DNA from: Catajapyx aquilonaris
Taxonomy: Eukaryota
Length of the DNA stretch: 34,577 nucleotides
NCBI GenBank assembly: GCA_000934665.2
Contig: JYFJ02004135.1
Span: 1 to 34,577 of the forward strand
Reading direction: 5' to 3'
In this document: positions 548 through 31,784 of the stretch, one piece after another
How the letters are laid out: every line of letters begins with the position of its first letter
Position numbering within the stretch: position 1 is the stretch's first letter
The notes under the pieces: generated by a model
What the model was told of the DNA's origin: nothing
The model's database searches: none
The model's input: the letters and a program-made list of their open reading frames with translations, nothing else
Translations under genes and position numbers: made by a program

Positions 548-1284
548 GTAGGTTATAGTTCAGCCTTACTTTTAAAACTGTGTTGAAGAATCCAGGGTGT
601 AAATGAATTCAACCAACAAACGTGTAGGCTGCAGGGGTAATAGATGGGACCAAGACAAACATATTTCACATAGGAACCTGTGTCCAGAAACTCCATCTAG
701 AGGGGGTTCATAGACAAGGAACAGGTGTGCTCGGATGCGTCAGGCCCTAGGCGCGCGGACTGTTGAGTTACTAGGTGCCATGTGGATAGTAAACAACGGC
801 ACGGTGCGCAGTAACCTGGCAACGGCAGAGCCACCTCACAACTAAAGCCCGCTTGCCAGGTAGCATGTGGATTGTAAAGAACAACTCTGATCTTGCCATG
901 TTATTACGCATTGCACCGTTGTTTACTATCCGCACGGCACTTAGCCACTCAGCGCACCTAACGCCTGATGCATCTGAGGGCACCCATTGCTCATCTATTA
1001 ACCCCCTTGAGATGGAGTTTCCGGACATGGGTACTATGTGTAATATGTTTGTCTTGTCCCCTCTATTACCCCTACACATTTGTCGGATGAATTGAGGGCT
1101 GTGCGGGAAAAACAAGATAACTGACAAAGGAGTAACTTTTCAGGAGAGAGAATTTAAGTTTGCACTCTTGTCACAAATCAGCATATTACCTCAACTTGTA
1201 ACACTGGGTTTTATTATATTGCCTGACTTTCTGTCTTGTTGTCCATAACTTTTGGAACACTTATTCCTGTAATTAATGGAGATA

Positions 1285-2356: not shown

Positions 2357-2898
2357 TATTAAATGGAAGAATGCGAAGCGTATAAAAATAGGGTCAGTTA
2401 TCGTGTTTTTCCCTTTGCGGAAGTGCATGATATGTGAACTTTGAGTATACCAAAATGTTTGTCATGTCTTTTACATAGTTGCTAGGTGTTTAGTTCAAAA
2501 ATGACAAAAATGTCAGTTATCATGTTTTTCCCCCACAGCCCTCAATTCATTTACACCCTGTATAAATAATAACTGGCCTTAAAAGAGAGTAACAAAAATT
2601 ATGTAGCGTATCAGGCTGTGTATGGAAGTCAGTGTTTCAGTGTTATGATTTATATTGCTTTTGTGGAATGTTTTCTTGATTACTTCTCTCAACTGAAGCA
2701 GGTTGGCTGCAAGCCCTGTTCAGTTCTCATGCACCCGCACCCTATCAAAACCTAAACATGGAAAGTAACAATGTGCACAAGAACTCATATCAAGTAAATG
2801 ATTCATAAACACCATAAAAATAATAAAATATTGAAAAGTGAGACCAAAACTGCTCCTGTTGGGTTGTGAACACCAGCCATTTTATGTATACTACTATG

Positions 2899-3450
2899 CA
2901 GGGTGTTTCTTATTCTGAGGTCAACCAGCAGTCTGAGTATTCCTTGGGCCACAACAAGTTGAAAACGTAGGGGTGAGAAATGTCGACGGACCAACCGGTA
3001 ACAAGGTAGACGACCAGAAACATTGTCCTATCCCTAGACACATGCAGCATCACACACGATGCCTCTTTGTAGGGAGATCGCCTGGCAGATGGACTCGCAT
3101 GCCTTAGAGAAGTTTTCTAAGGCTATGAGTGCGAAAATCACTTCTGCTAACGAGGCGATCTTACAAAATCCCATCAGTCATGATTATCACGCTCATATCC
3201 CGCTCCCCAGGCAACCCCTGCGCACGAGCTATCTGCCAGCCAATCTCCCTACAAAGAGGTGTCGTGGGTGTTTCCGCATGTGTAGGCCCGATGTTTCTGG
3301 TCGTCTGCCTCGTTACAGGTTGGTCCCTCGACATTTCCTCCTCTCTCTCTTTCCAACCCCCTCCCCACACACACACACACACATTTCAGACTTGGCTTGG
3401 GTCTAGGAATATGCTGACTTCCAGTTGACCTACTAGTAAGAAACACCCTG
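2899..3450. mobile_element. Fold-back Tc1/mariner-type MITE with internal (CA)n
   Basis: TIR CAGGGTGTTTCTTA..GGTCAAC; further inverted blocks 2982-3022/3291-3333 and 3055-3100/3222-3268. Confidence 0.8.
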
Positions 3451-3516
3451 CATTTGTTTTGGTAGTAGTACATGTAAAAGGAGGAGTCAATGTGCAAGTG
3501 GATTATGGTTACAGTA

Positions 3517-3681
3517 CAGTGTTGCACATTAATCGAGTCACACTACTAGCGACATTTTCCGAAGCGGCAGAAGAACGAATCTTGCTCCCATGGCTTGCAC
3601 TATCCATAATATCTTCGATACGTTCTTCTGCCACTTCGGAAAATGTCGCTAGCAGTATGACTCGATTAATGTCCAACACTG
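3517..3681. mobile_element. Palindromic MITE (CAGTGTTG family)
   Basis: TA-flanked, about 65-bp arms CAGTGTTG(C/G)ACATTAATCGAGTCA...GCAGAAGAACG. Confidence 0.85.
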
Positions 3682-3689
3682 TACAAAAA

Positions 3690-3941
3690 TACCACTCGTT
3701 TTATAAGTTAGCTTCACCTGTGTTGATGAAAATCTGGCAGATACTAATTTCCACTTCCCCCTGTGACCCCCCACCTTCAAGTTTTGAGTAGATTTGTACA
3801 TTCCGTTCATAAGCTCATGGAATGGGCTTTTGCAACAACGCAGGTAACCACTGCCAACAGAGGCAACGAAAGTGAGTGGAAATTAGTGGCTGTGAGATTT
3901 TCACTGCTACTGATATGAGCTAACTTGCAAAGTGCCTGGTA
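3690..3941. mobile_element. Degenerate MITE
   Basis: Imperfect inverted blocks aagttagct..gaaaatct..actaatttccact / agtggaaattagt..agattttc..agctaactt. Confidence 0.5.
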
Positions 3942-4049
3942 TATTTATTATTTACTTTAGAAGTGTAATTTTTAAGAGATGCTCAAGAATTCAGAGAAAT
4001 ATGCAAATATGATTAGTGTTGATAAATTGTTACATGCTTGGTGTTGGTA

Positions 4050-5299
4050 CGAGGTAGGCGCCAAAAGTTTCCGTCCTGGCTATGTTCCAGGGGTGATAGA
4101 GATGAAACAACTATAGTGTCAGGTAGTCCCAACCATGAGTTGAGGAATGTACAAGTTTCACCCGGCAACGTCAGTCAGTCTCTTAGAAAAGTCAACTTTA
4201 GTTAGACGAGTTGCAACATGGTGAAAATCGAGTATCGAGAGTGATCAAGTTCCTCACCAAGGAAGGCCTTACTACGATGTCTATTAAACAGGCCTTGGGT
4301 GGTGTGTATGGTGGAGCTTCCTCTTCATATTCCACCATGAAGGAATGGGCTAAGCAGTTTCGTTTGGGCTGAGAGAACATCGAAGGCGGGCTATGCGACT
4401 TTCGGCCCTTGGAGGTGATGACTGCAGAGACCGTCTCTCTTGTGGAGGAGTAGGTGCTGCAAGCAGGCCCTTGGAGGTGGAGGAACTCTTGGGAAGGTTG
4501 TGGCTTTCAGACACCACCATTCCTCTCATTATTCATGAACACCTTCACATGAAAAAGGTCAGCACAAGATGGGTGCCCCAACTTCTGTCCGCAATTAAAA
4601 TGCGTAACATGTTGCGAAACGTTTTCGGACCTTCGCCTTGGCAAACAGAAAGAAGTACTGGAGTTCATCGTCACAGGAGATGAAACTATGGTCCCGTGCT
4701 ATGATCCTCTATCAAAATGAGAATTAATGGAATAGCATAGGGCAGGCGGAAAGCGGCCGAGTGACCCGGTCAACCAAGAAGACCATGGTGACGGTTCTTT
4801 AGAATTCCAAAGGAATCTTACTAATAGACTTCAAGGATTAAACCTCGATTGTCTACGGGGAGTCTTACTCTGGCCTGCTGCACAGGTTTCGTGATGCCAT
4901 GAAGAAGAACAGATGCGGGAAGTTGAGTTGGGGTGTTCTCCAACATCTGGATAATGAACCAGGTTACAGGGCAATGTTTCCAAGACTGCTGTGAGGAACT
5001 GTCGCTTCGAGGAGCTTGATCACCCACCCTACTGGCGCCTAGTGACTATTACATGTTATCCAAACTCAAAAAAGAACTTCAAGGTACGGTTTAAAAGTGA
5101 TGAAGAGGTGTAAGAGGCAGTATATGAGCATTTTGTAGAGAAAACTTTGGACTATTTTTCCAGAGGTATTGAAATGATAATTATGAGATATGAGACGTGC
5201 ATTGATGTAGAAGGATACTATATTGAAAAATGACACTGTCGTTTTATTTCCATCACCCCTGGAACATAGCCATGACGGAAACTTTTGGCGCCTACCTCG
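4050..5299 (+). mobile_element. Full-length decayed mariner transposon (transposase pseudogene, irritans-like)
   Basis: TA TSD both sides; about 59-bp TIR CGAGGTAGGCGCCAAAAGTTTCCGTC; broken ORF with VIKFLTKEG, IIHEHLHMKKVSTRWVPQLLS, IVTGDET, HPPY..APSDY, CIDVEGYYIEK*; many stops and frameshifts. Confidence 0.93.
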
Positions 5300-5453
5300 T
5301 ACAAGTGGCTCTCCTTACATAATGTGCAGCAAACCTGTAGCATTGGTTATTGGAAATGACCTCTACTTACAGGCTAGTCAGCAGATAAAGTCATGTTCAG
5401 ATTATGTGACGATTCCATAGTGATCACACTGAAGTAATGTGTTCTTCTTTCAG

Positions 5454-5616
5454 ATGTTTGGTGTATGCCATCGGTTACTACAGCAAATCAAGAGCCGAAG
5501 TAGGGGTTCCACGGTGCAGGAGGAGAGACTGGGAAGCAACGTTGCTAGTGCTTTAGCTGCCACACTGCAAGATCTCTTCTTTGAATTCCGACGAGGGCAG
5601 AGCACTTATTTGAAAA
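5454..5616 (+). CDS. STX16: Syntaxin-16 coding exon
   Basis: Acceptor ttctttcag, donor A|gtatgg. Encodes MFGVCHRLLQQI...ERLGSNVASALAATLQDLFFEFRRGQSTYLK; phases fit both flanking exons. Confidence 0.95.
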
Positions 5617-6340
5617 GTATGGCAATTCATAGAAGCTAATAGTTAATGGGTTGTTTTTCTCAAGATGTGCCACCCTAACTTGAACCCTATTATCTGGGAC
5701 AGGTTCTCCCTGATTTCTTCCCAAAATGTGCCTGCACCCATGGTGCAAGGGCTAGCTGTAATTTTCAGGGCTAGTCTCACTGATCCAAGTGGCAATGAGG
5801 CCTTAGTAGCAATATACGTAAAAGCAAGGGTGTTCGTAGGAGAAAATATAAGATTTTTTCAGAAAACAGGTGGAACTCGAGACATTTGTGTTCATACTTG
5901 ATATTTCATTGGGGATTCAGGGTAATGTACCCTCTTGCAACAATTAATTTTCTGAGATTTTATACGGACAAAATGCTAGAATTTCCTATTTATTGTGGTC
6001 GTACAACCACACCCCTAAGAGTAGATGCAGTATCTAAAAGCCCCACTGCACACCACATTGTGTTATAGCTACCAGATGGAAATGTTCAATAATCTGGTCA
6101 CCCCTAATTTTATCAGCATGCCTGGGTCATAAGATTGGTGTATTTTTGGAATGCTACAGCACTCTGTCCAGTGAAGTGTAAACAAAGCTTTAGAGAAGTT
6201 CAAGTTGTCAAGTTTCAATGCAGGTATAGCACTCATTGTAAGATTATGACTGATATCAACATTAGCTGCAGAAATGATGGTTAATTGGTCTCTTTAAGAG
6301 AGTCTACAGGCAGTCCTCAGTATATGGTCCTGGAACTGTA

Positions 6341-7068
6341 CAGTGTTGGCCATTAACTATCTCCCTGCCGTGTCCGTCCTCCACGGACAATTCCCAACAA
6401 AAATTGTGGGATTTTTTTTGCAAAAAAAAATTATACTCGTAAATGAATACGTGGTTTTCGGCATATTCACAAGCAAAAAAAGCAGAATTCAACACAAAAA
6501 TCACATGCTCAAGTGCTATGTCGGACTTTTTCGGATGACGTCATCTTCCGGCGGCCATATTGGAAAGAGTTCTATGCGGAGTGATAGAGATTGTACAAAT
6601 TCTAGCTCAATTCTGTGACTTTAGAAATGATTTAGATTGGATTCTAAGCAATATTTTGCATATAATCGTTCTTTGAACCAGTAAATTTCACCACCCGACC
6701 TGCGAGTAGATGCATAGAAATAGCTATAGCAATTATGCTACGCATGGCCTAGACTATGGGAGCTGCACAGTAGATCTGGCGGGAGCAGCGATTCAGTGCG
6801 GTTCGAATGATATACATGGCATGGGGCTAACACATTGCCTAGGTAAGATATTGAATTTTTAAACTGTGATTAAGTCAAGCGGTGTTGCAGTAGCAGCAAC
6901 GCCGCGGTGGTTTGAGAGTTAATCTCATCGTACTGCTAGTTACGTTTTCCAAACCAACAGAAGAACGAATCTTGCTCGCCCGGCTCGCATTATCCATTGC
7001 TTCGATCCGTTCTTCTGCCACTTTGGAAAATGTTGCTATCAGAACGACGCGATCAATGTCCAACACTG
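6341..7068. mobile_element. CAGTGTTG-family MITE split by a piggyBac-like insertion
   Basis: TA-CAGTGTTGGCCATTAA at 6341; remainder 6923-7068 aligns to the intact copy at 3517-3681. Confidence 0.75.
6357..6918. mobile_element. piggyBac-like non-autonomous element
   Basis: TTAA duplicated at 6353-6356 and 6919-6922; degenerate CT.TC termini; second copy at about 1324-1858. Confidence 0.65.
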
Positions 7069-7150
7069 TACAACCTTCATCTGTAACGACTTCACACATT
7101 TTATGATCGTGTACTTGTTGTTCAAAGCATGGCCTTTCATTAAAAGAATT

Positions 7151-7268
7151 GGGTGAAATTTTCGTCCGACTGCTAGTTACTGCTAACTTAGCAGTACCAG
7201 AGAGAGAGTGTGTTCGCATTGGTACTGTTAAGTTAGCAGTAACTAGCAATGGGACGAAAATTCCACCC
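7151..7268. mobile_element. Small hairpin MITE
   Basis: 49-bp arms gggtgaaattttcgtcc...cagtacca / tggtactg...ggacgaaaattccaccc with 20-nt spacer; symmetric TTAA 7 nt outside each arm. Confidence 0.75.
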
Positions 7269-8081
7269 TTTGTCATTAACAGTTATGTGAATTTACACTA
7301 GCAAGACTGCATGCTGCTAAGTTATATCCCAATGGAACCTCTCTGTAACAACACTCAAGGGAATTCAGATTCCTTTCCTTATGTGGTAAACAACTTTAAG
7401 CTTAATTTTGTTATTGCCCATGCAGGGAGAGAATTGCTGGCATAAGAGTCCAAACTTGGGATGTGTGATGGGACTCAAAGCATTTATTACTCTATGAGAA
7501 AAATTCAACTTGCATGCCATGCTCAAGGTTAGTTTATCAAAACAAAGGCAAGTGAAAGTATGACATAGGTTCTCACAGCTTGGGGAAGGAGTAGATCCAG
7601 GAGAACTCAGAATTACACAGGGGCTACTAATAAAGTGATGGTAGAGATATTGTCACATGAATTAGGAAAATGTGTATTTCTGACCATGATATGTTGAATT
7701 GTCAAAAGCCATTGTCATATACGTAAAATCTGTTAGTTACATCATGCTTAAAACGTTTACTTTACTACAGAATCAAATAGTTGAAATCGTGGTAAGGCTT
7801 ATATTGCAGGAAGTCATCTGTATATTTTTAAAAGCCACTGAAATAGCTACGACTGTACCATGGTTTGAATTTGTTCATGAAAATGACCGAATTTCTTACC
7901 AAAAATACAAGGGATAGCATCAGGTGTGGGACTTCAAAATTCATTATTATCTTTTATTATGATAAAAGGTTATTCACAAATCCATAATACTCAAGTGGGT
8001 TTCTGATTGAAATTGCTCGTCACTGTGATTTATTTTCTGCAGCTACTTGGTTGCATATGTGAATCTAACATGCTGTTTACA

Positions 8082-8378
8082 GTAGGGGGGCATGGTGGTC
8101 TAGTGGCTATGCTACTGGCCAGCCAAGTGGGAGGTCCAGGGTTAAAATCCCATACCCATCACCTTTGCTTGGTCGCTTTTTCCGCTTTTCACCCGACATG
8201 TCCGGGCAGAATTGACTTCCCTTCTCTGCCCAGGGCCAAGAGAAAAGGTATGGTATTTAAGAGAGTCAGAAATGACTAGCGCTCCCCTTGGGAACCTCCC
8301 CTTCCCCCCCCCCCCCNCCCCCCCCCAAAGAGGGCCCCTGGCCCTACCACGGAGTATTAAAAACAAAACAAGCAATCA
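8082..8378 (+). mobile_element. tRNA-derived SINE (family A)
   Basis: A box TGGTCTAGTGG, B box-like GGGTTAAAATCCC, A-rich tail; 15-bp TSD AAC(A/G)TGCTGTTTACA at 8067-8081 and 8379-8393. Confidence 0.8.
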
Positions 8379-8458
8379 AACGTGCTGTTTACAACATGTA
8401 GGTTTGCAAAAATTTCAAGATATTTGTGATGATATCTCACGTGTTCTAATTTTTGCAG

Positions 8459-8730
8459 AGTTGCAGTCAAGAGAAGAGCAGTCGCAGCGGTATTTTTCAA
8501 CACCTGATAACCTAGGCGAGAACAGCAGCCAGTCAAGTCGCACCGAAGACTTTCTGTTTGAACAGAGCCACCTTCTGACAGAAGGCTCCATGACACAACA
8601 GCAGCTCCTACTTTTAGAAGAGAACACAGCCATGGTGGCTCAGCGGGAGAGGGAAGTGCAGAACATTGTGCGGTCCATAGTTGAACTCAACCAGCTCTTC
8701 AAAGATGTCATCTACATGGTTAGCGATCAG
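8459..8730 (+). CDS. STX16: Syntaxin-16 coding exon (start of Qa-SNARE motif)
   Basis: Acceptor ttttgcag, donor CAG|gtaaac. Encodes (K)LQSREEQSQRYF...EENTAMVAQREREVQNIVRSIVELNQLFKDVIYMVSDQ. Confidence 0.95.
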
Positions 8731-8986
8731 GTAAACCTACTGGTGCTATCATTTGACTCTGTGCTGATATTTTATGTGAAGTATCCTAAAATGCATGATT
8801 TATAATCTCTCCTGAATGCTGATTTTATAACACCTTACATGTTTTTGACTTGAGAATCACCAAACTCGCTTTTTGTAGATTGGTTCTAGTTTGCCCAATT
8901 GTCATTTCACTTAATACTGATTTGTATGTGCTAAATGACTGGGAAATTCATATTGATTTACATGACATTTTAATGCTGTTTTGCAG

Positions 8987-9169
8987 GGCACTGTACTTGA
9001 CAGGATAGACTACAATGTGGAACAAACACAAGTGAAAGTAGAGGCTGGAGTGCGGCAGTTGCGAAAAGCTGAGGGCCATCAGAGGAGCAGTAGGAAAATG
9101 CTGTGCATTATGATTCTTGCTGGACTCACCCTCCTGTTCCTCTTCATCCTCATTTTCACAAAGTTTTGA
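8987..9169 (+). CDS. STX16: Syntaxin-16 last coding exon (SNARE end plus C-terminal TM anchor)
   Basis: Acceptor ttttgcag. Encodes [13 protein letters not shown]...[24 protein letters not shown]. Downstream poly(A) candidates AATAAA 9428-9433 and ATTAAA 10129-10134. Confidence 0.96.
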
Positions 9170-13789: not shown

Positions 13790-14108
13790 ACCTAGGGAGT
13801 GAAAATATTTTCTTTCGTATAGCCTTGCTTCACATTATGCCACTTGAGAACAAAGATGCATACACTTATGGTGGTGTTGACCTCTTCGTTTTTGCATTGA
13901 GTGAGAATACTTGAAGCAATATTTTCAGATGTATATGGAATATGGTTCTATCAGTCCAACAAGAATTGTCGCAGCGGCAGCGCACGAACTACAATCTACG
14001 AGCACAGGGACACGAGAGACTGTAGTTCGTGTGCTGCCGCTGCGACAATTCTTGTTGGACAGCAGGTACTTGCAAGAAACTATTGTGATCTAATATTAGA
14101 CGTTTCAG

Positions 14109-14344
14109 TTACCAGTGCAGCAGGGCTTCAAGCACAGCTTCAAGCACGACTTCAAGCACGGCTTCCAGCGCAGGTGCTAGATCATGCCTCACCTGTTGGT
14201 CCAAATGAGCTGCCTCCACCATATACTGTCTCAGCCCCTGGAGGTGGTCCAGTCATCACTTGTCGTGTATGCCAGGCCTCGATTGACATCTCTGGCAAGC
14301 GGGAGCAGCATGTGGTCAAGTGCACTCATTGCAACGAAGCCACT
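14109..14344 (+). CDS. PIP4P: PIP4P/TMEM55 exon 2 (acceptor position uncertain)
   Basis: Encodes ...ELPPPY...[31 protein letters not shown]; donor gtgagt at 14345. Best acceptor is gtttcag at 14107-14108, but other phase-1 AGs exist downstream. Confidence 0.88.
14126..14173 (+). repeat. 12-bp coding tandem repeat x4 ([16 protein letters not shown])
   Basis: CTTCAAGCACAG CTTCAAGCACGA CTTCAAGCACGG CTTCCAGCGCAG. Confidence 0.9.
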
Positions 14345-14983
14345 GTGAGTTGTGTTCAAATTGACAATTGACGAGTATGGCAAAAAGGCATGAGCTGGTT
14401 TCAAGGAAATGTAGGATATTTATGGAATATGGAACTTGATTGCTTTCCAATTATTTTATAGGCCTATAACCTATTTTTAAAAATCTACTTGGCAAGGCTA
14501 TGGTTATAAACATTCTTGTACTGTAAAACGGCTTGAGCAATTGGTTTTTAAGATATGTATTTTTCAATGGATTTGAAACCTATCTCAGCTGGTACATTGT
14601 AAAAATTAAGTTCTTACAATTTGTCCGCATCACCTGCCCTGATAATTTTATTTTACATTTATTGTATGGCAACCAGATTCAGTCTGGCTTGATCCTGAGA
14701 CATGTTAGAAATAATGAGTAGCTTATAAAAATTTTATGGAGGACTTCATAAAATTATGCAGGAGAGATTTTCACGTTCCTTTGTTGTTTGCATCACATTC
14801 TGCCCAAAAAGATATCACTTGAATGAGGGCCCTCTGAAAAGGGGCATAAGGAGCAATAATTGCCCTTTTCCAGACCAACCCTGTAACAAAATGCCCAATA
14901 TTTTGTACCTAGGTGGTGCATGCAATTCATTGTCCTTTTATGGAAAGGTTGTGATTTAAAATTTCAGCATTTCCACATTTATT

Positions 14984-15329: not shown

Positions 15330-15533
15330 TTTCCACATTTATTACCACTCAATATGAGTTATTTGCTCCATAAGGATTTAGGTTCTAGAATACACATGAA
15401 TTTTCAATTGAATATGGAACATGCAGTTTAACCTCAATTGAACATGTAGGAACATCATATTGTGGAGAAATGTTTTTTCCCAACATCTGTGGTGATGGTA
15501 CCTTTTCTAGCTGTTTTCATTACATTATTGCAG

Positions 15534-15743
15534 CCAATACGAAGCGCACCTCCTGGGAAGAAGTATGTGAGGTGCCCATGCAATTGCTTGCTGATCTGCA
15601 AGAGCTCTTCACAGCGCATTGCCTGTCCTCGCCCCAACTGCAAACGGGTTATCAATCTTACACCGAGTCCTGTCACACCACCCATGCCCAATGTCCCTGG
15701 GATGTGCCGTGTCACCTGTGCTCACTGTCACGACACGTTTCTG
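15534..15743 (+). CDS. PIP4P: PIP4P/TMEM55 exon 3 (CX5R motif)
   Basis: Acceptor ttgcag, donor gtaaga. Encodes [42 protein letters not shown]...[12 protein letters not shown], the family signature including CKSSSQR. Confidence 0.96.
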
Positions 15744-15770
15744 GTAAGAAAACTCATGTGTTGGCATTGA

Positions 15771-19545: not shown

Positions 19546-19691
19546 GTATCAACGGTTCAAAAAGAATTGTCCCTCGCGTCGAGCGGGCAGCCACGTGTCA
19601 GGATGAAAGCAACCAGTTAACTGGTTCCTTTCATCCTGACGCATGGCTGCCCGCTCTACGCGAGGGACGATTCTTTTTGGACTGATGATAC
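19546..19691. repeat. Spacerless 146-bp imperfect palindrome (probable MITE)
   Basis: 73-bp arms symmetric about GTT|AAC at 19618/19619; TA at both ends, right TA shared with the next MITE. Confidence 0.88.
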
Positions 19692-20148
19692 AGTCCCGCT
19701 CATAAAGAATGGTATGCCTCGATGTACGACGTGTTTATTCTGACTATCCAGCATTATTCCCAACCTGATTTCGTCGCGACACTGTGGACAACTTGTCCTA
19801 GATCTCTGGCGACCCCTATGACCCCTTCCCGACTTTTTCCCAAATTTTTTATTACCAAAATGTTCAATCTAGTACAATGCTTGTAAGCATTGTACTAGAT
19901 TGAACATTTTGGTAAGTAACATTTAAGGGGGGAAATTCATCTCAAATCTATGTAAACATAGATTTGAGATGAATTTCCCCCCTTAAATGTTCTTACTTTG
20001 CCTTGTTTCCTTCTTCTTTTTTTCTTGATTTTAATTGCCTTTTCCCAGCCATCCTCATGACCCCTAAAAACATGCTGGTGACCCATGGGTTAGGAACAGA
20101 ATAAACATTTTGTCCATAGAGTCGTACCATTCTTTATAAGCGATACTG
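19691..20148. mobile_element. Tc1/mariner-type MITE (CAGTCCCGCTCATAAAG family) with internal double inverted duplication
   Basis: TA TSD both sides; TIR CAGT(CC/AT)CGCT(C/T)ATAAAGAATGGTA; collinear with 12504-13294. Confidence 0.88.
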
Positions 20149-20179
20149 TACCTAAATGTGATGTTGATAATTGTTTCAG

Positions 20180-20234
20180 GTTGGCACACGTAATGTGGCT
20201 CGTGGAAACCCTGGGATTATAGTGCTATATATTG
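20180..20234 (+). CDS. PIP4P: PIP4P/TMEM55 exon 6
   Basis: Acceptor gtttcag; encodes VGTRNVARGNPGIIVLYI; donor G|gtgagt. Confidence 0.9.
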
Positions 20235-20293
20235 GTGAGTTTTTCATTTTGAATGCCATGGGTCAAGATTTTTGCTAACAACGGCTTTTACAG

Positions 20294-20379
20294 GTGCTTT
20301 TCTGGTTGCCCTATTCTTCTTGTTTCGAAGTATCTACTATTTCACTATGAAAGTCAGCATTATTGAGGGACCTCTGTAA
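20294..20379 (+). CDS. PIP4P: PIP4P/TMEM55 exon 7 (TM2 and stop)
   Basis: Follows a 59-bp intron; encodes (G)AFLVALFFLFRSIYYFTMKVSIIEGPL*. The seven exons sum to 810 nt in frame. Confidence 0.92.
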
Positions 20380-21292
20380 CTGGAAGGAGCAAATGCATTT
20401 TGGTGCAAGTGGCAACAATGGTCACGGGCCAAAATATATGACCATTGTGAAGAGGACATTATTCTTGGCTTTGCTTCCCATGTCTACATGTGTTTTGTTT
20501 TTTTTTTCTAGTGCACTGGTTAATTTTTTGGGTGTCATTCTTATAGTCATAAAACATTTTTGAATGATTATGTGCAAGGTACTATTTTGAGTGCCATCCA
20601 CAAGGATTGAGCTAATTATGGAGAGTTCTACTCTCTCGTTATATGCGTTGTTAGAGGGCCCTTTTATATACAGGCGAATTACACCAATTAAAAGTTTTTC
20701 ATGGCCTCAATTGCCTAAGTGAAATGTTTCGAGCATGTTGATCATCTCGGTTTTGTAATTTTTGGATTACCGGAGGAGGTCTCGTGTAAATTGGTGTCAC
20801 AATTTCTGCGAGAACATTCCAAATTTTGGGAGATGCCTATGGTTACACATTCATTAAGCCATGTTTTTTCCCTGAATAAAGTGACTCCTTGATTGTAATA
20901 TACGGTAAATGTGATTTGGTAATTGGGTGTACAATATACATGTAGGAAATATGCATATAAAATAACATTATTAGCAAAATAATTCTGCTTTGTGTTGTCT
21001 AATAAAAGTTGTGTTTATTCACAAATTTGTTCTACTTCTGGAAAATATCAGGAAGTGGTCCGTCATAAAGTACAACATGCTGACCTTTCATGTTTTTATT
21101 TGAGAATCACCTTCATGTCACACTCACATGAGTCACATCACACTGCCTTCCTCATTGTATGACAAGTCCTACTAGTCCCTACAAGTTGTCCTCTAGTCCA
21201 TACCTACCAGTGTGGCGTACTTTATGAAGAACCCATAATGATAGCAATGCAGGTCTTAACATGTCAAAATGTTCATGCTTTCTTGGTTGACT

Positions 21293-22999
21293 TTAATATG
21301 TATGCATTTTCACAATTCCTTTATTTTGGAAACTCTCAATGATCTTTTGTGAACACTTCTGGAAGCTATCGTGCATTGTAGTTGCCCAGTCTAACACTTT
21401 ATTTCGACCTGGTGCTACACATTTCCCACCTGCATCATTGTAATCAGTCCACAACTTGTTGACTAACCTATCAAAAGCATCTCGGACTGCATAATCCAGA
21501 GGTTGCAATTTGCATGCACAGCCTTTGGGAATCACTGCTAAGTTAGTGTTGTTTTCATGAAAAATTGCTTTAACAGATTGTTCCACATGCGGTTCATAAC
21601 AGTCAACCACTAAGAGATTTGGACTCGACACGTGTTTTGTCCATACTGTGTCAATCCAGGTTTTCATGCATGTTGAATCCATCTGTCCATGCTGTTGATA
21701 CACTGCATGTATGCTACCCTTTTGCATGACATCATTTGCCTGGCCTTTTAGGATCACAAAGGGTGGAAGTGCTGTGCCATCAGCCAAACAGGCAACAACA
21801 ACTGTCACCTGGCAATTGCCCCCGCTTCGCTGCAACAAACGTTTAGAATTGGTACCATTTCCGAGGAGGTGAAGTGGAAATTCATCCATGCTACCAATGC
21901 AGTTGGGTGGGAGATTAAGCTTTGCAATCAGTTCCTGTGTTTCAGAGTGGAATGCTGCAACCTTTTGCATCATCTGGAGGGGTAGATCGGCATCACTGGT
22001 AGTGTGTTGTAGCAGCGGGTGCCTCTTGCAGAAACGAATGGCCCAACCCGGAGATGCTTTAAAATCAGACCTTTTTTTTCCAATAATACTCACTGCAAAT
22101 AACTGCAGGTCAGCATGAGTGACAGTTTCATTATTATCAAATCTGGTCAATATCCACTCTATTATTTCGTCATCGTGAGTATGGCGGCTGTGAAGCCCAT
22201 GTCGGGCAGTCCACCTCTTGTACCACCCATGTGAACACTTGATATTATCGTGACCACTTAACTTGAACAATTCACAAGCTTTTTTCTGTACCTCACTACT
22301 CTGTGGTTGATTTCCACTTTGCTCACACTGCATGTACCAAGTCCACAATTGATCTTCCACATCAGCATCAGTAACAGACCTGCCTCTGGGCTTAATCCGT
22401 CTTATGCCTGACTGAACCATGGTGTCCAAACTTTCTTCCTTTTTCATCCACTCTGACACTTGCTTTCGGGAAACTCGAAAAACACGAGAGGCTGCACTCT
22501 GGTTGTTCACTTTCGCGTAAGCAGCCACTTCAAGCTTAAACTGGGGGGGATACTGTAAATGGTGGCCATCATCGCTAAAATTGGATTCACCGCGTTTCAG
22601 CCATGTTGACAGCCATTCTGGCACTGTTTTATGACTCGTCGCTAACTGTTGCACCTCCTCTTTCACTTCATTGGCACTAACAATGTGATTATCATCTCGC
22701 ATTTCCTGCAACCATGTGATAAAAGCATGTTCAGCTGTGTTGATGTTCTTGTCTGATCCCACCTTCTGTTGATCTACTGTTCTGGTCCATTCTGACACTG
22801 TTGCTTGGTGCACCCTAAATTTTTCAGATGTATCCTTGAAGGTATGCTTCTTGGCATAATATATGACTTTTGACTTAAACTGTGGCAAGTAGCGCTTCCC
22901 CTTTCTACAACGCTTCTGCTTGCATTCTGCTGCTCCACTTCCTGTTGCGTCATCAGTGACTTGTTCTGCTCGTGTTGATGTGCTTGTGTCAATGTCCAT
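21293..22999 (-). CDS. pogo/Passer-type transposase-derived protein (POGK-like; Brinker-type DBD x2, CENP-B-type HTH x3, DDE_1 domain), probably domesticated
   Basis: Uninterrupted 568-aa ORF with strong Kozak gcaATGG. Motifs: YxPQFK...F.V....VSEW twice; E/D..L..W...K.S.GW..RF/W..RH.L type HTH units; IGSMDE, VVVACLADGTALPPFVILKG, LLVVD-x35-D (KLQPLD). Splice acceptor 6 or 19 nt upstream of the ATG; no flanking TIRs seen. Confidence 0.9.
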   Translation of the reverse strand: MDIDTSTSTRAEQVTDDATGSGAAECKQKRCRKGKRYLPQFKSKVIYYAKKHTFKDTSEKFRVHQATVSEWTRTVDQQKVGSDKNINTAEHAFITWLQEMRDDNHIVSANEVKEEVQQLATSHKTVPEWLSTWLKRGESNFSDDGHHLQYPPQFKLEVAAYAKVNNQSAASRVFRVSRKQVSEWMKKEESLDTMVQSGIRRIKPRGRSVTDADVEDQLWTWYMQCEQSGNQPQSSEVQKKACELFKLSGHDNIKCSHGWYKRWTARHGLHSRHTHDDEIIEWILTRFDNNETVTHADLQLFAVSIIGKKRSDFKASPGWAIRFCKRHPLLQHTTSDADLPLQMMQKVAAFHSETQELIAKLNLPPNCIGSMDEFPLHLLGNGTNSKRLLQRSGGNCQVTVVVACLADGTALPPFVILKGQANDVMQKGSIHAVYQQHGQMDSTCMKTWIDTVWTKHVSSPNLLVVDCYEPHVEQSVKAIFHENNTNLAVIPKGCACKLQPLDYAVRDAFDRLVNKLWTDYNDAGGKCVAPGRNKVLDWATTMHDSFQKCSQKIIESFQNKGIVKMHTY

Positions 23000-23286
23000 T
23001 GCTCTCTGCCAGTAAAGACTGTAAAGAATACCATGTTTGTAAAACTACAGTTTGACTTTTTAATGCCTCTATGACCTATGCTTGTATACCAGTGGGTGCC
23101 AAACTTGGGGCTCTGCCCCAAATGCAGGTCCTGAAAGTGACCCTCGCGTCACAGTAAGGTCAGGAGGGGATGACAACATTTTTATAATAAATGGCAAAAT
23201 TGGCAGAAATAAGCAACTTGACTGACAAAAGTCATGTCCTATATCGTCGAGAAATGTACAAAGGGCCACAATCAACAATTTTGATA

Positions 23287-23429
23287 ACTGATATTGCCCA
23301 ATAGCAGTTATTTTTGAAGCTAGTTGTGCCCTTAACCATGTGCTCCATTCTATAGCAGTAGTTATAGAATGGGGGACATGGTTAGGGGCACAAGCTACAA
23401 AAAAATAACTGCTATCGGGCGATATCAGT
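23287..23429. repeat. Hairpin element (probable MITE)
   Basis: About 67-bp arms actgatattgcccaatagcagttattttt...ccattctata / tatagaatgg...aaaaataactgctatcgggcgatatcagt with short loop. Confidence 0.8.
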
Positions 23430-23869
23430 ATATCTTCCAGAAAGACACCACCTTGGACAAGGGGTTATTCACTAAGGGTAGTCCGGGTACACTTTCGTAG
23501 GTAGTCCTGGTAGTCCAGCCTGGACTACCCAAGTAGTCCGGGGTAGTCTGTGTATGCAAAAAATGTAAGTGAATAACCCTTGTTACATGTCGGTGGATAT
23601 TTGCCCTTCTTACTTGTGCCCTATAAGGTGTGGCGTCAAAGATTAAAAGGGCGAATATGGGATATTCGCCCTTTCTCCTTACGCTGCTTTTGGATATTCG
23701 CTGGGACCACTTTCCCATACAGGCAGACTGTTCCACGTACACATCTGCCGTTTCACCAAAACATGCAGTGGGTGATGACACCTTCAGATATGCATTTAAG
23801 CCATTTTGTTAAAAATGGTCTATTCGCCCTTTCTCCTTAATGCCGACGATATGTAGAGAAGAACTAATA

Positions 23870-24450
23870 CAAGGGGCATTCGGAAAGTCTTCACACTTTA
23901 TTTTTTTGCCACAAATCCAGGGCCCTTGCAGGTCGGCAGATAGGCACACATTATCGATAGAACCCTCTTGGAGCCAAATGAACTGGCATCATAGGTATGT
24001 CAACCTCTCCAGGACCTCTAGGAACCAAGTTTTGGAGGTGCTGCGCACCCTCTCTCGGGCAACTGCTTCCTGTTCAACAACTGTCAAGAATGTCCTGGAA
24101 ATGGAGTCGGCGAAGGGTTTTTTTCATGGCTCCAGGTTTGGATGCTTCCACACCTGCTGTACTCCCCTGGCTTGGCCCCCTGTGACTTTCACCTGTTCGG
24201 ATCCATGAAAGAACCTCTTCGCCGATGCCATTTAGAGGACATTGTTGTACAGGAAGCAGTTGTCTGGGAGTGGGTGTGCTGCACCTTCGAAACTTGGTTC
24301 CTGGAGGGCCTGGAGAGGTTGACATACCTCTGATGCCAGTGCATTCGGCTCCAGGAGGGTTCTATCGATTCTGTGTGCCTATCTGCCGACCTGCATGGGC
24401 CCTGTATTTGTGTCCAAAAAGTAGTGTCAAGACTTTCCGAACGCCCCTTG
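23870..24450. mobile_element. mariner-derived fold-back element made of two inverted 3' ends
   Basis: TA TSD; about 255-bp inverted arms; centre and right arm encode LPHLLYSPGLAPCDFHLFGSMKEPLR...WFLEGLERL (YSPDLAPxD motif). Confidence 0.9.
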
Positions 24451-24745
24451 TACATGTGTGAAATTTTAACCATTTCTTTCTTTTTCTTCAACCCAAAGGT
24501 ACGAACTTTATGAAATAATAAGCCTCAATAATCCAACCTGAATGGAACAGAAAAGTGGATCACTACAAATGTCAAGTTGTACAGAAATGGTGGGTATACG
24601 GGTGTGAAACAATATAATATTGGAAGTGAATTTTAAGTATGAAATCATAGTTTATTAATACCTTTTACACAAACTTGTCACTTTGCATGGAGTCTCAGGT
24701 GGCATGCAACTTGCACTGGATGCTTGTTTTACAACCTCTGATTAA

Positions 24746-25214
24746 CCCTTAACTGCGTAGGTGGCCGAAACACCTTTAACTACGTATGTGGAGCCTGAGC
24801 GGCTCCAACGGTATATTTAAATCTCTGCTTATCAACTAATTGTTATATTGGACTTTTCACATCCAGAAAGTGCAGTTCAGATCATTAGGCTTCCGAAAAC
24901 GTAAAAATCACATGCTTAGTCATCATATTCTGACAGGGAAAAATTTTTCATTAAAAGGTTACATCATGTTGGAGCCCCTCAGGCTCAACCTACGTAGGTG
25001 GAGCCTGAGCTGATCCAGGTGGGACCTGTTCCTCGTTACGAATTTTTTTCAACCAAAGAACAGGGACTAAAAATTTTTTTTTCTCCTTTTCATGCTTAGG
25101 AAGGTTTTTCTGACAAAGTCACGGAAGGACGGGGGGAAAAAAATTTCAATGAAAAAGTTACATGCGTTTAAATAGTCGTTGGAGCCTCTCAAGTTCCACC
25201 TACGTAGTTAAGGG
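24746..25214. mobile_element. piggyBac-type MITE
   Basis: TTAA-CCCTTAACTGCGTAGGTGG ... CCACCTACGTAGTTAAGGG-TGAA; internal GGAGCC repeats. Confidence 0.82.
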
Positions 25215-25340
25215 TGAACATTATGGTAATGATGCCAGACGAAAGAGAATCGTGAAGAGCATGTTGTACGACAGTGACAGATTACAGAAAGTTGTATTAC
25301 ACTGTTGTCCAGTTAGCCTGTCCCACAACTGAATACTCAC

Positions 25341-25880: not shown

Positions 25881-27769
25881 TTTAAAATTTATGGAAGAGG
25901 ATGTGCACATGCCATAGAGGTATTATATTGCTCAAGAATATTGCGACAGTGTCAAAATTTTCTTGAAAGTTTTGAAGTGCAATGGTGGGGTGGGGTGGTG
26001 GGGTTTGGAAATGTTAGTGTTTCCGTAATAATTACTTTTTGTGTGTGCATGCTGTGGTGCATGTAATGAAGGTAATAAAGCCTTATTGTTCTGCTTTATG
26101 CAATGTCAGAGTTGTATTGCAGATATTTTGACCTCCCAAAAATAACTTTACCAGTAGGGCTATTGATGTAACGTGCACTTTTTGTGGTAGTACGGTAGCA
26201 GAAAAAAGGGCGTACAATAACAGGAGTGAAAATGGACAAAATGTTATAAAATGTTGAAATATTGGCATTTCTTAAAACTAAAAGATATCATAATAGGGTT
26301 TTTACAGGAGTGAAAGGAAGTCCTTTTTCTATGCCATTCCAAAAATTATTTGTGTCTAGATTGGCATGGCACTGAGAATCAGATGGTTATATTTTGGTAT
26401 CATTTTTATAACCTACAAACTGTTTGCTGGTTATTCAAGCAGGTGGTTAGGCCGATCACTTTGTCAAATATACACTGCAGAATGAAGTGGTGTTTGGTGA
26501 TTAATTTGAAATCTCTATAATGAAAATTGTGGAATTTTGAAAATTATTATGAATATTTTGGAAAACAAGCGTTTTGTGTACCTATGCAGTGCAGTGGGAT
26601 GAATAGAGACATGGAAAAATATCAAGTTTTTCAATGATGTATAATATGGGATTCCATTATTTATTAATATTTAAAGCTAGCTAAGCATTGCTGCGATGAG
26701 TATTTGTTGAAATTAAGTGAATTTTGAATAGAGAAAAGCTATATTTTTTGTGTTAGGTCCACTCGAGGCTAGTCACATAGTGTACAACAGTGGGTAGGTA
26801 GGACGTTTTAATAATGTAATTTTGAATAAAACTACCAAAGGTAATAATTTGCAACTGTTTTTGCCCATCAAAGATTTCTTAAAAACCAAAATTAAGTCCC
26901 TATTAATTCCAGTTGCATGTTGAAAAAGGGACTTACATTTTACATTGAAAGACAACAAGTGTCCTTATTGTCTCCACCAGGTCTCCACCTTTGGGCTCAA
27001 TAGGGGCAGGCAACTAAATGTGTATATGTACAGTATACTGTAAGCCTACATGAAACAGGCTTACAGGGAGAGAAAAATTATGCGTGCTATCACAGGCTTA
27101 CGTTAGGCTCGGTTAGGCTTAAGGGTCAAAGATAAAATATATAATAATTTTAACATTTTTTCATTCAGTAACTACATACAAAAAAAGAAAAATGTGTCCT
27201 TATCCATCCCAATACACACTATACATTTCTTATCCTGCCATAACACCATTTCATCGTGTGTATGGGCAAGAGGCAGTTTCAACTTTTAGTTTATCGCCTT
27301 TGATGAAATTGGTATCTTAAGCCTAATTACTTAGCTAATAGCCCTTTCATATGGTTAGGAGCAAACACGGTCGGGTGCAAGATAGCACGTGATGTGCAGC
27401 CATTTTAGTTAAGAGTTTATACTCTAGCCTCATAATGACATATAATCTGTTTCTGGCAGAGTATAGCCAAATAAGTTACTAGCAGCTGTTGTGCCATAAA
27501 AATTAACCTGGTGATATATGAAATTTGCATTATAATATGAATCTCATAATTACCTTGTATATTACTGGTGCAGTTGAATAATACTGTAAGTGGCTAGTCC
27601 CTAGTGTTTGATTGGATATATGGTTTAATTATGCCATTTGCAACTGCAATGCATGCTTATTTTCTTTTGACACAGGCACACGTGTGGAATGCACAGTGAA
27701 AATAACCTCTGGTGCATGTGAAAGTGATACTCCTATTACCATCAATTATGGATTTGATGTGGTAGATTC

Positions 27770-28155
27770 CCCAGCAACACACGAACATTCAGGAATGCCC
27801 AGTCAATGCCCTGAATGTCCAGCCAATGCCCTGATTGTCCAGTGTTCAATGCCAATAATGTTCAGTGGCCATCAAATGAATGTTCATCACTGCTGGACAT
27901 TGGATGTTTATCCCTTGATCAATGTCCTCTAAGTCAAGTCAAGTCAAGTTAATGTGAGGCAGTGAACCCACAACTTAAAATAAATTAATTTCAGTAAATA
28001 TGAATCAGTCCATGGATATAATCATATAATATATTAAAATTTAACAATTAATTTTTGAATACCAATAAATTAGACATGAATGTTCACCAAACATTCACTA
28101 CAGGGCAATGGCAATTGACAGAATGACATTCACTGAACATCTGTGTGTTACCAGG
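27770..28155. mobile_element. Degenerate DNA element with CCCAGC-type end and subterminal short repeats
   Basis: cccagcaacacac..ttcaggaatg vs reverse complement cctggtaacacac..ttcagtgaatg; internal ccag.caatgccctga repeats. Confidence 0.45.
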
Positions 28156-28407
28156 TGTTACTGAGGTTATGTTCCTATTATTGTGACAGTTTAGGATGGC
28201 AGGGTGGTGTAGTGGTCAGCACCACAGCCTTTCACCTTTCAGGTGCAGATATCAATCCCCAGATCACAGGGAGGACACTTGATCATAATTATGGAAAGGA
28301 TTTCAATGGGTTCTGTATACAGTTTGTAACTAGGCTTGCATTATTTCTCATGCCTCCCTACACATAATTATGAGGAAAGGTACATTGATTGGTATGTAAT
28401 CCTACTG

Positions 28408-30052: not shown

Positions 30053-30778
30053 CATTTATTTAGTATAACAGCCAGCAGAAGAAGGGCGTCAAAAGGGATA
30101 TAACCAACATATTATAGAAAGTGAAGTTTTTTTAACAACATTTCATTCATGAAGTTTACAGTATGACTAAAATTAAAGTATATAACTCCAATCACAGGAG
30201 GATCCAAAAAAGTAGTAGTTTAGAGTGGTGTCACGTTGTTAGCAGGCGTGGCGTAGTCCTAAAAGCTTCAGAATCAGGAATGCATTATGCTGAGACGGTA
30301 TTGTCATGGGCATTATGATTATATTGGATGTTTTATATATATAAAAGTGTATATTATTATGCACTACACTCTCAATTTTTAAACAAAAGACAAATATGTT
30401 TTCATAAGAGAAGCTCAGAAGTTTATTACTTTCTAGTTTTCTACCACTGTACCAAGTGTATTGTGTCAAGAGTGGCTTCTCTCAACTTATATGTTTAACT
30501 CTAGTTTAGTTGTGAAAATTATATTTTACCAAAGCAGTTTGCAGTTTTATATGATACACGCATCAGCCAAAGGGGTGTAACCCTCAAGGCATGAGATGGA
30601 ATAGTGAACTCACACTACATGTGCATTGCAGCTTTGGTTCAATATGGCATGGAACTTATTATCTCTCTAAAATTTTCCTTCATTGTTGGCTTGAACACTG
30701 GTCACAATACATGATACTAGGCAGTAAAAGAAAAGTGTTTCTAAATACCAGTACCTGTATATTAAACTGATTTTTCAG

Positions 30779-31029
30779 ATGGTGCAAAAGAGACGTCTGA
30801 AGAGAATAAATATGGTCTGTCATTTATACCATGCAAATTACTTTGACACGATGGCATATAACCGGAGTGAAATTAACATTCGCAAGGTGAAGAAGGATCA
30901 TTTTGTTAAGGATGATGCTCACCGCCTTCTCTATTGTTGGATTCACAAAGTGGCATCTACATCGTGGTTAGCCCTTTTTGCACACTTGACTAATGCAACA
31001 GGGATTTTGTTAACACAGAAATTCTATCG
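30779..31029 (+). CDS. Carbohydrate sulfotransferase (CHST11-like), coding exon 2 with 5'-PSB motif
   Basis: Acceptor tttttcag; DDAHRLLYCWIHKVASTSW (cf. YCYVPKVACTNW); donor CG|gtgggt. Confidence 0.92.
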
Positions 31030-31090
31030 GTGGGTACATTTTAACATTTGATTAAGGAAATATGGTTACAAATTTTGGTTTTGTTGGCAG

Positions 31091-31784
31091 GATGGCTGTG
31101 TTGCAACGACCGCTGAGCGATGAGGATCTTCTGGTAGCAAACGTCAAAAAGCGATACTTTACGTTCCTTGTAGTACGCCACCCTTTTGAGCGCTTGTTGT
31201 CAGCCTATCGTGACCGAATTAACCGTAACACCACATACTCATTTGCTGCATTCAGGCATGCTCCAAAAATTCTCCGTATGAGCCGCCCTGGAATTGATCG
31301 TGACAAGATCTTTCACAATCGCTCTCGAGTTCTTGCGATCATTCCAACATTTGAGGAATTTGTCCGCTATGTGATACGCTACCCAATGCAAGAATTTGAC
31401 AACCACTGGGCTCCATATTGGCGGCATTGTAGCCCATGTTCCATGAGATATGATGCTGTCTTCAAGCTGGAGACCATGACGCAGGATGCCAAATATTTTC
31501 TTCACAAAAACCATTTGACTGGAGCACAACTGGAGCATTTGCACCTGACAAATTCAGGTGCTTCAAAAGAGCACTTGCGCAAGTTTTATTCCCAAATATC
31601 TCTGAGTTTGCTCAAAGCACTGCACAGTAAATATTCATTAGACTTTCAGTTATTTGGGTATGATATTAGTGAATATCTCACATATGTAAGAAATGACACC
31701 AAACCAGCTTTTCCACTAAACAATATCCCAGTACATGTGAATGATGACAATAGTGACAGTACATCTGATCCACCTGCTGAATAA
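31091..31784 (+). CDS. Carbohydrate sulfotransferase (CHST11-like), last coding exon
   Basis: Follows a 61-bp intron; FLVVRHPFERLLSAYRD (3'-PB), PTFEEFVRY, NHWAPYWRHCSPC..YD...KLET...DA, YSLDFQLFGY; stop TAA; ATTAAA at 31825. Confidence 0.94.

Follow-up and report, generated by a model that had tools for sequence, protein, structure and literature searches.

The 34,577-nucleotide stretch of Catajapyx aquilonaris DNA analyzed here (contig JYFJ02004135.1, referred to as the window) contains an intact open reading frame (ORF) that is quite probably a host gene of an undescribed arthropod family. The family would descend from a Passer-type pogo transposase domesticated before chelicerates and hexapods split, and its members would serve as DNA-binding factors with multiple helix-turn-helix (HTH) modules. 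The original prediction, made from the letters of the sequence, had named an intact ORF of 568 amino acids (aa) without its strand; we recovered this ORF, counted from its first ATG, on the minus strand, with an in-frame stop 15 codons upstream of that ATG. The ORF and the modules of its product are as follows.

21293..22999, minus strand: intact ORF of 568 aa (span including the stop codon), a multi-HTH pogo/Passer-derived arthropod gene (ORF call, translation, Pfam)
22757..22900, minus strand: HTH 1 (Brk1), Brinker-type, aa 34-81 (HTH_28 20.5 bits and BrkDBD 14.1 bits, below cutoffs)
22586..22738, minus strand: HTH 2 (CENPB1), Tc5/CENP-B-type, aa 88-138 (HTH_Tnp_Tc5 17.9 bits, below the cutoff of 22.2)
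22409..22555, minus strand: HTH 3 (Brk2), Brinker-type, aa 149-197 (BrkDBD 29.8 bits, E 5.8e-7, aa 149-192 matched, passes)
22184..22366, minus strand: HTH 4 (CENPB2), Tc5/CENP-B-type, aa 212-272 (HTH_Tnp_Tc5 46.9 bits, E 2.7e-12, passes)
22007..22177, minus strand: HTH 5 (CENPB3), Tc5/CENP-B-type, aa 275-331 (HTH_Tnp_Tc5 42.6 bits, E 6e-11, passes)
21323..21901, minus strand: DDE_1/RNase H-like transposase domain, aa 367-559 (Pfam, AF2, Foldseek)
21884-21886, 21602-21604 and 21494-21496, minus strand: codons of D372 (SMDEF), D466 (LVVDC) and D502 (QPLDY), the three Asp of the triad, called D1, D2 and D3 below (sequence, alignment)

The domain order, five HTHs of the types Brk-Tc5-Brk-Tc5-Tc5 followed by DDE_1, emerged from Pfam, from profile-profile comparison of the family and from an AlphaFold2 (AF2) model. 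In the whole-protein Pfam scan, HTH_Tnp_Tc5 matched three stretches (E 4.2e-25), and BrkDBD and HTH_28 matched two stretches each. Each domain piece was also scanned alone against Pfam and judged by gathering scores. Brk1 and Brk2 were 45% identical (E 8e-7). When sub-profiles of the family were compared by hhalign, Brk1 matched Brk2 with a probability of 98.3%, and the Brk module of canonical pogo-type relatives was matched by Brk1 with 97.4% and by Brk2 with 98.7%; against the canonical Tc5 module, CENPB1, CENPB2 and CENPB3 reached 96.3%, 98.8% and 99.0%, respectively. All same-type pairs, within the family and against canonical modules, lay between 94.7 and 99.0%, and all twelve Brk-versus-Tc5 cross pairs at 3% or below. 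The AF2 model, computed from a 23-sequence family alignment (mean pLDDT 81.7, pTM 0.58), contains five separate three-helix bundles (aa 39-81, 89-138, 152-197, 212-266 and 276-326), the first two with helices at aa 39-51, 54-61 and 65-81 (HTH 1) and at aa 89-102, 109-122 and 128-138 (HTH 2). Low-confidence linkers separate the first four bundles (aa 79-85, 141-145 and 201-207), and a long helix (aa 341-361) follows the array and precedes an alpha/beta domain. Because of the Brk1-Brk2 identity, the hhalign probabilities and the modeled bundles, the weak first modules Brk1 and CENPB1 are to be taken as real despite their sub-cutoff Pfam scores. The predicted layout of two Brinker-type HTHs, three CENP-B-type HTHs and one DDE domain was therefore borne out by Pfam, hhalign and AF2. 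As to whether the profiles would support more than one pair of DNA-binding domains (DBDs), three modules passed the gathering scores, and the first pair fell below them and was rescued by hhalign. A sequence search of the PDB returned no match at E ≤ 0.01. With Foldseek, the AF2 model matched the CENP-B(1-129)-DNA complex (1hlv_A) weakly (E 0.02; TM 0.38, target-normalised).

The C-terminal part of the protein matched the Pfam family DDE_1 over aa 397-555 (E 5.4e-15), with 55.9 bits in the whole-protein scan and 57.7 bits, above the gathering score, for the piece alone. AF2 placed beta strands at aa 368-376, 398-405, 414-418, 430-435, 461-465 and 485-489, and Foldseek matched the catalytic domains of Mos1, SETMAR/Metnase and Sleeping Beauty as well as retroviral integrases. 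Exactly 35 residues separate D466 and D502, as had been predicted, and the drifted neighboring motifs DEF, GQMD and RDAFD were likewise found in the sequence. The DDE_1 score is lower than the 62-109 bits obtained for 19 of 20 canonical relatives; the remaining one, P0104, scored 24.4 bits.

To define the family, we performed a deep HMMER search of 1.84 billion representatives, which gave 1988 matches at E ≤ 0.001, 35 of them at E ≤ 1e-30. Among the first 60 representatives listed, 19 gave a single BLASTP segment running from aa 34 or before to aa 501 or beyond of the window protein, and these segments span the whole five-HTH array together with the DDE domain. Ordinary pogo-type proteins aligned only from aa ~148 (Brk2 onwards, with a gap for one Tc5 module) or from aa ~265-278, that is, with the last Tc5 module and the DDE domain; HTH 5 is the module that most of these canonical proteins align with. 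Relatives with the array were named in 24 arthropod species among the cluster members listed. These are Orthoptera (Anabrus simplex, Gryllus longicercus, G. bimaculatus), Phasmatodea (Timema bartmani, T. monikensis, Bacillus rossius, Dryococelus australis), Blattodea (Blattella germanica, a fragment), Thysanoptera (Frankliniella fusca, Megalurothrips usitatus), Hemiptera (Clastoptera arizonana, Lycorma delicatula, Macrosteles quadrilineatus, Nilaparvata lugens, Cimex lectularius, Nesidiocoris tenuis, Homalodisca vitripennis, Bemisia tabaci), Collembola (Orchesella dallaii), ticks (Ornithodoros turicata, Hyalomma asiaticum), a spider (Oedothorax gibbosus) and scorpions (Centruroides vittatus, C. 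sculpturatus). The members were annotated as "uncharacterized", as "HTH CENPB-type domain-containing" or automatically as POGK/POGZ-like. They fell into clusters of 1-7 members, except for a cluster of 23 short fragments; for none of the named members was more than one contig on record. A profile search with alignment A2, restricted in scoring to the 7999 candidates with the most shared words, gave nine matches and no new order among those named; in the ESM Atlas, only generic DDE_1, Tigger and POGK-like clusters were found.

At 800-1600 aa, many orthologues exceed the window protein in length; their N-terminal extension is poorly conserved and carries a sixth HTH, of the Tc5 type ("FKASDGWYRRW"), as in P0002, P0003 and P0005 (alignment A1, columns 1-110). 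This module is closest to CENPB2 of the window protein (aa 203-268, 32% identity). It is missing, together with the extension, from the window gene, the Cimex gene and three further members, all of which are short. A tblastn search did not find the sixth HTH in the 11.5 kb upstream of the ORF; this search was confined to the window, and an exon farther away is possible. The Pfam family CENP-B_N matched one of 23 family members, none of the 20 canonical relatives and not the window protein.

Three kinds of match were set apart from the family. The third-best match of the deep search, P0007 from Phytophthora fragariae (2055 aa), was rejected as an orthologue; a DDE_1 fragment is repeated 33 times in it (700 bits), and it is either a tandem array or an oddity of assembly or annotation. 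P0048 (949 aa), which falls into the canonical clade, combines a Chromo domain (E 2.3e-14) with BrkDBD, Tc5 and DDE_1 and has Lys at D3; it is possibly a separate chromodomain-Passer domestication. Six large proteins (P0052, P0063, P0135, P0146, P0149 and P0101; 1239-1746 aa) contain three to four Tc5 stretches and several HTHs of the psq/HTH_28 type and gave no DDE_1 match at E ≤ 1e-4. Since large HTH arrays without a DDE domain occur in these proteins, expansion of a pogo-type array as such is not unique to the family.

The descent of the family was examined in a tree of 44 rows, 24 from the family and 20 canonical, over aa 275-563. The trimmed sequences were aligned by MAFFT with faster settings, and the tree was computed by IQ-TREE under LG+C20+F+G4. 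The family formed one side of a branch supported at 99/95* and present in 98% of the bootstrap trees (support values are given as noted in the analysis, starred where they were starred there). Five groups represented by multiple samples were each recovered: ticks, together with one further row (100/99*), Thysanoptera (100/100*), Orthoptera (99/98*), Phasmatodea (94/92) and Hemiptera (86/76). Further clades were Cicadomorpha (97/92*) and a bug clade of Cimex, Nesidiocoris and two further rows (100/99*). The window protein grouped with Orthoptera, Phasmatodea and one further row (94/89), the ticks with the spider (94/82), and the hexapod rows with one another (88/70). The branching largely follows arthropod phylogeny. 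Because the tree agrees with phylogeny at the level of orders and the derived array is present in chelicerates and hexapods alike, the family probably goes back to a single domestication that predates the split of these two groups and was followed by vertical inheritance.

We then compared the triad across the family. At D1, 22 of 23 rows retain Asp, the exception being Bacillus with Gly; at D2, 20 of 21 do so, the exception being Nilaparvata with Asn. Of the 21 rows that reach D3, only seven have Asp there (the window protein, Timema, Anabrus, Gryllus, Bacillus and two thrips); the remaining 14, among them ticks, spider, springtail and all Hemiptera, show N, E, I, V, R, C, A, L or a gap instead. 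The whole triad is present in six of 21 rows, the seven with D3 minus Bacillus. Among the canonical rows, D3 is Asp in 16 of 20, mostly within a D(V/I)S.NK motif, and the D2-D3 spacing is 35 in 15 of 20, as compared to 10 of the 21 family rows. The "retained triad" of the original prediction therefore holds for the window protein and not as a feature of the family. Since D3 was lost in 14 of 21 members, the conserved function of the family cannot require it, and catalysis appears dispensable for the family as a whole.

A different situation is conceivable for the window protein, in which a nuclease role is possible because all three Asp remain. The domesticated protein might still be an enzyme, its array targeting a DDD nuclease or recombinase to particular sites, e.g. 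the ends of Passer/pogo-derived miniature inverted-repeat transposable elements (MITEs) or sites of programmed rearrangement, with the catalytic role persisting in a Polyneoptera/Thysanoptera-like group that includes the window protein. We regard this as unlikely. It would fit the complete D-D35-D triad in the six rows, the conservation of D1 and D2, the resemblance of the fold to the catalytic domains of Mos1, SETMAR and Sleeping Beauty, and the abundance of MITE-like palindromes near the gene; moreover, in the seven rows that keep D3, the motif IPxGC..(K/R)LQPLD is invariant and is followed by a basic residue four to five positions later. In these seven rows, however, 25 of 137 ungapped DDE columns are invariant, and because retention of D3 among such close relatives does not exceed this background of 18%, it is not in itself evidence of catalysis. 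One of the seven, Bacillus, carries Gly at D1, the canonical DET and NK motifs have drifted, and all HTHs but one surpass the DDE domain in conservation (see below). A more far-reaching version, also quite unlikely and slightly less probable still, holds that the triad-keeping group (the host of the window, Orthoptera, Timema and thrips) owns a five-HTH-guided DDD nuclease or recombinase that has been active for hundreds of millions of years after domestication, on specific sites such as Passer/pogo-derived MITE ends or in programmed rearrangements, while other lineages have reduced it to a DNA-binding factor.

The distribution of constraint was derived from the mean identity of the family members to the window protein. 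Brk1 is the most conserved module (0.49), followed by CENPB3 (0.47), Brk2 and CENPB2 (0.41 each), the DDE domain (0.32) and CENPB1 (0.24), the least conserved HTH; the linkers and the N-terminus reach 0.10-0.25. In the 23-row alignment, 17 columns are invariant, and five of these hold tryptophans of the HTHs (W71, W184, W221, W259 and W282). By this measure, constraint is stronger on four of the five HTHs than on the DDE domain. For an estimate of selection, five metagenome loci related to the family member P0272 were fetched, and codons were compared among four of them, L005 being left out. The three pairs among L001-L003 (460-1057 codons) gave pN values of 0.14-0.30 versus pS values of 0.83-0.86; where the short L004 was one partner (three pairs, 136-138 codons), pN was 0.40-0.43 and pS 0.84-0.96. 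Purifying selection thus appears to act within the family, measured off the window gene's own branch. L001-L003 lie on short environmental contigs as frames of 503-1514 codons without interruption, L001 being 99% identical to P0272; therefore, small arthropods in such samples carry the gene.

These data bear on the proposal that the ORF is a decaying relic, i.e. an old insertion that stayed open by chance and is without function in its host. The proposal can draw on the fact that no RNA run is recorded for the stretch and that the selection figures come from other family members, and yet we find it hardly credible: a frame of 1707 nt with 32-40% identity to relatives whole orders away cannot stay open without selection, the conservation is concentrated in the folded domains and absent from the linkers, and the AF2 model is confident.

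We next considered mobility. As had been predicted, no terminal inverted repeats (TIRs) bound the ORF; the inverted-repeat search found only spanning pairs of 15-19 nt with 78-93% complementarity, several of them with an arm inside the ORF. A tblastn search of the window with four homologues revealed no second copy and no extra exon, with nothing at E < 0.3 outside the ORF; the sole other matches were self-matches among the ORF's own HTHs. In the DNA run X1, which is possibly the source of the assembly, a single contig of 3196 nt (20113-23308) spans the ORF with zero differences. Its word depth of 32.9 lies inside the range of the seven other long X1 contigs listed (27.6-36.8), as compared to 900-52,000 in repeat-holding bins; word depth does not equal copy number, and so this is only a hint that near-identical copies are not numerous.

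A Passer-like transposon of low copy number that is still autonomous, has a five-HTH transposase and is passed on vertically or horizontally among arthropods is very improbable and largely refuted. Consistent with such an element are the intronless, intact ORF with its complete DD35D triad, the three Macrosteles loci in one 90% cluster and, according to the available text of Gao 2020 and Dupeyron 2020, the frequent occurrence of pogo elements in arthropods. It is at odds with the lack of TIRs, with an X1 word depth equal to that of unique contigs, with clusters of only 1-7 members save the one of short fragments, with a gene tree matching order-level phylogeny, with pN values far below pS, and with a triad that is broken in most members, yet in ORFs of 600-1600 aa that stay open. 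The three loci of Macrosteles quadrilineatus (LOC128993503, LOC128991670 and LOC128993465, each on a contig of 99,947,680 bases) look like a recent lineage-specific gene duplication. On these features, the ORF is a host gene and not an active transposon. The suggestion of an old invertebrate domestication that expanded the DBDs accordingly stood in its first part, which agrees with the absence of TIRs, the 24 species, the tree, the loss of D3 in intact ORFs and the excess of pS over pN. Its second part, an expansion in the window lineage, did not, the array being already present in ticks and spider.

A hint of transcription comes from run X5, which belongs to a different study. Its contigs cover 21175-21683, 21701-22064, 22048-22401 and 22661-22953 with zero differences; several bins, e.g. 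26173-28173, have no X5 cover, and no X5 joint was found among the joints listed. One X5 contig matches the window only at 30776-31028, in the neighboring CHST gene, the matching part being preceded by 177 letters and followed by 47 that do not match. It sets in 3 nt upstream of a ttttcAG acceptor, whose AG is at 30777-30778, and breaks off right before a GT at 31030-31031, and the 47-letter tail would end at 31137, where the next X5 contig starts. This implies a putative 61-nt intron at 31030-31090 in the sulfotransferase gene. These contig ends close to CHST splice sites suggest that X5, a run of unrecorded kind, is RNA.

Several points weigh against a host gene of this age, range and function. 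The 20 canonical rows of the tree were hand-picked from ~125 listed, Centruroides was left out of it, having only 11 residues in aa 275-563, and neither the chelicerate clade (94/82) nor the hexapod clade (88/70) is starred; orthology would have to rest on this tree and on the shared architecture. No holometabolan, crustacean or myriapod occurred among the named matches listed, which form a partial listing and do not prove loss, so that an "arthropod-wide" range means chelicerates and non-holometabolan hexapods only. The pairs used for selection are metagenome contigs with dS saturated in all six, and they allow a comparison of pN with pS but no ratio. That X5 represents spliced RNA, and hence that the ORF is transcribed, is suggested by a hint from contig ends and not by a listed joint. 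The window protein and six relatives keep D3, six of 21 rows keep the whole triad, and a catalytic role could have been retained in this group. Finally, the DNA binding of the family members, their non-catalytic role and the age of the family in years are what we infer.

The locus was characterized by two further motif features on the strand of the gene.

23019..23028, minus strand: pyrimidine tract with AG (ttctttacAG), possible splice acceptor (motif only)
21014..21100, minus strand: two AATAAA motifs, at 21100-21095 and 21019-21014 (motif only)

The ttctttacAG tract, which has its last letter at 23019, precedes the ATG of the ORF by 19 nt, and no read or contig junction supporting this acceptor was seen; the AATAAA motifs lie 193 and 274 nt beyond the stop codon. 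A splice acceptor before the ATG and AATAAA signals downstream had both been predicted, and both are present as motifs only. The neighbors named in the original prediction, PIP4P and CHST, were supported by Pfam matches to Tmemb_55A (exons 13901-14368 and 15450-15767) and Sulfotransfer_2 (30728-31781). The best matches of the CHST neighbor, in Odonata and a crab, reached only 40% identity and placed the host no more closely than among arthropods, probably pancrustaceans. Its statement that all other transposase remnants are broken found no confirmation, as the seven other ORFs tested gave no Pfam match at E ≤ 0.01. Nested MITE-like palindromes occur on both flanks of the gene (19546-20150, 23287-23429, 23868-24452 and 24742-25218), among them a pair with 182-nt arms (23899-24080/24242-24423) and a perfect 36-nt pair at 19918-19991; the X1 word depth in their bins is 900-9000. 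The open frames at 8146-8802 and 284-583, both on the plus strand, presumably resemble SNARE/syntaxin-like exons, a resemblance that Pfam, empty at E ≤ 0.01, did not confirm. The letter X in translations near ~8300, ~12970 and ~28870 corresponds to N in the assembly.

For the proposed host gene, the following course of events may be envisaged. The ancestral layout would have comprised one Brk HTH, one Tc5 HTH and the DDE_1 domain. Gain of a second Brk-Tc5 module and of one more Tc5 HTH would have led to the order Brk-Tc5-Brk-Tc5-Tc5-DDE; many lineages have the sixth Tc5 HTH in their N-terminal extension. Five flexibly linked three-helix bundles could read a long or composite DNA site, and the degenerate RNase H-like domain would serve as a structural element or as a platform for oligomerisation or partners rather than as a nuclease. 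By analogy with POGK, POGZ, CENP-B and fission-yeast Abp1, the protein may act as a sequence-specific chromatin or transcription factor.

CENP-B, POGZ, POGK, JRK and the TIGDs are domesticated pogo transposases and key chromatin and neurodevelopmental genes of vertebrates. The arthropod record of such domestications is thin and, in the available text of PMC4231638, consists of small CENP-B_N-type genes from Holometabola only. The present family would be a deep and independent domestication of the Passer type, in which a two-HTH module was duplicated into an array of five to six HTHs and the catalytic domain was kept while its third Asp was repeatedly lost. It would provide a system for asking how the DBDs of transposases become readers of long DNA sites and for what purpose a non-catalytic RNase H-like domain is retained, and it raises the question why Holometabola apparently manage without the gene. 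Gryllus, Blattella and Nilaparvata are insects commonly used for RNA interference; as family members occur in all three, the function should be directly testable.

A Passer-type origin of the family is supported by comparison with published elements. In the available text of Gao et al. 2020 (PMC7386202), nearly all Passer elements are DD35D, their transposases carry BrkDBD and HTH_Tnp_Tc5, and Passer is the source of POGK and POGZ. The window protein has the features of the pogo superfamily, DDE_1 preceded by HTH_Tnp_Tc5, and the sequence features of Passer, DD35D spacing combined with BrkDBD and HTH_Tnp_Tc5, and shows no match to CENP-B_N or HTH_psq; its earlier assignment to the Passer branch agrees with that account. 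In the tree, which held no named Passer references, the family is sister to a clade of 11 proteins with BrkDBD (8/11), one Tc5 module (11/11) and one DDE_1 domain each. That such transposases normally have one copy of each DBD was likewise upheld by the single Tc5 stretch in all 20 canonical relatives. The canonical Passer transposases, including the active Passer of fish (PMC9976928), share BrkDBD, Tc5 HTH, DDE_1 and DD35D with the window protein but have one Brk and one Tc5 module, TIRs, many copies and a DET and D(V/I)S.NK context. The window gene has two Brk and three Tc5 modules, lacks TIRs, shows the word depth of unique contigs, and encodes drifted motifs and a DDE_1 domain with a lower score.

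Among domesticated relatives, POGK and POGZ resemble the window protein in being conserved host genes that retain a complete DDE domain, with a triad that has degenerated in part (POGK DN35D, POGZ DD35D; Gao et al. 2020). They are, however, fused to KRAB or zinc fingers, neither of which was detected in the window protein among the 13 Pfam families matched at E ≤ 10; instead, the latter multiplies the transposase's own DBD to five HTHs, and to six in many orthologues. Given its range in arthropods, the family is a domestication independent of POGK and POGZ, and because KRAB and zinc fingers are lacking, the window protein is not an orthologue of either. The insect CENP-B-related genes (Drosophila CAG, the lepidopteran CENP-B homologue and the Tribolium CR genes) also encode domesticated pogo-derived HTH proteins; in the accessible part of Mateo & Gonzalez 2014 (PMC4231638), they combine CENP-B_N with Tc5, belong to the pogo/CR clade and to Holometabola only, and, unlike the window protein, are often only ~225 aa long and without a DDE domain. 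The DNA-binding domain of CENP-B (PDB 1hlv) is a similar pair of adjacent three-helix HTHs and binds DNA, but its first HTH is CENP-B_N, whereas the first HTH of each pair in the window protein is of the Brinker type. The available portions of the literature on pogo domestication, including Gao 2020, Dupeyron 2020 and Mateo & Gonzalez 2014, of a 2023 survey of metazoan transposable element-derived transcription factors and of a 2026 Drosophila study contain no description of the family, though the supplementary tables of Gao 2020 and Dupeyron 2020 might list members as "pogo". Domesticated pogo genes are thus already known as a kind; the multiplied Brk/Tc5 array, the range from chelicerates to hexapods and the pattern of triad loss are new.

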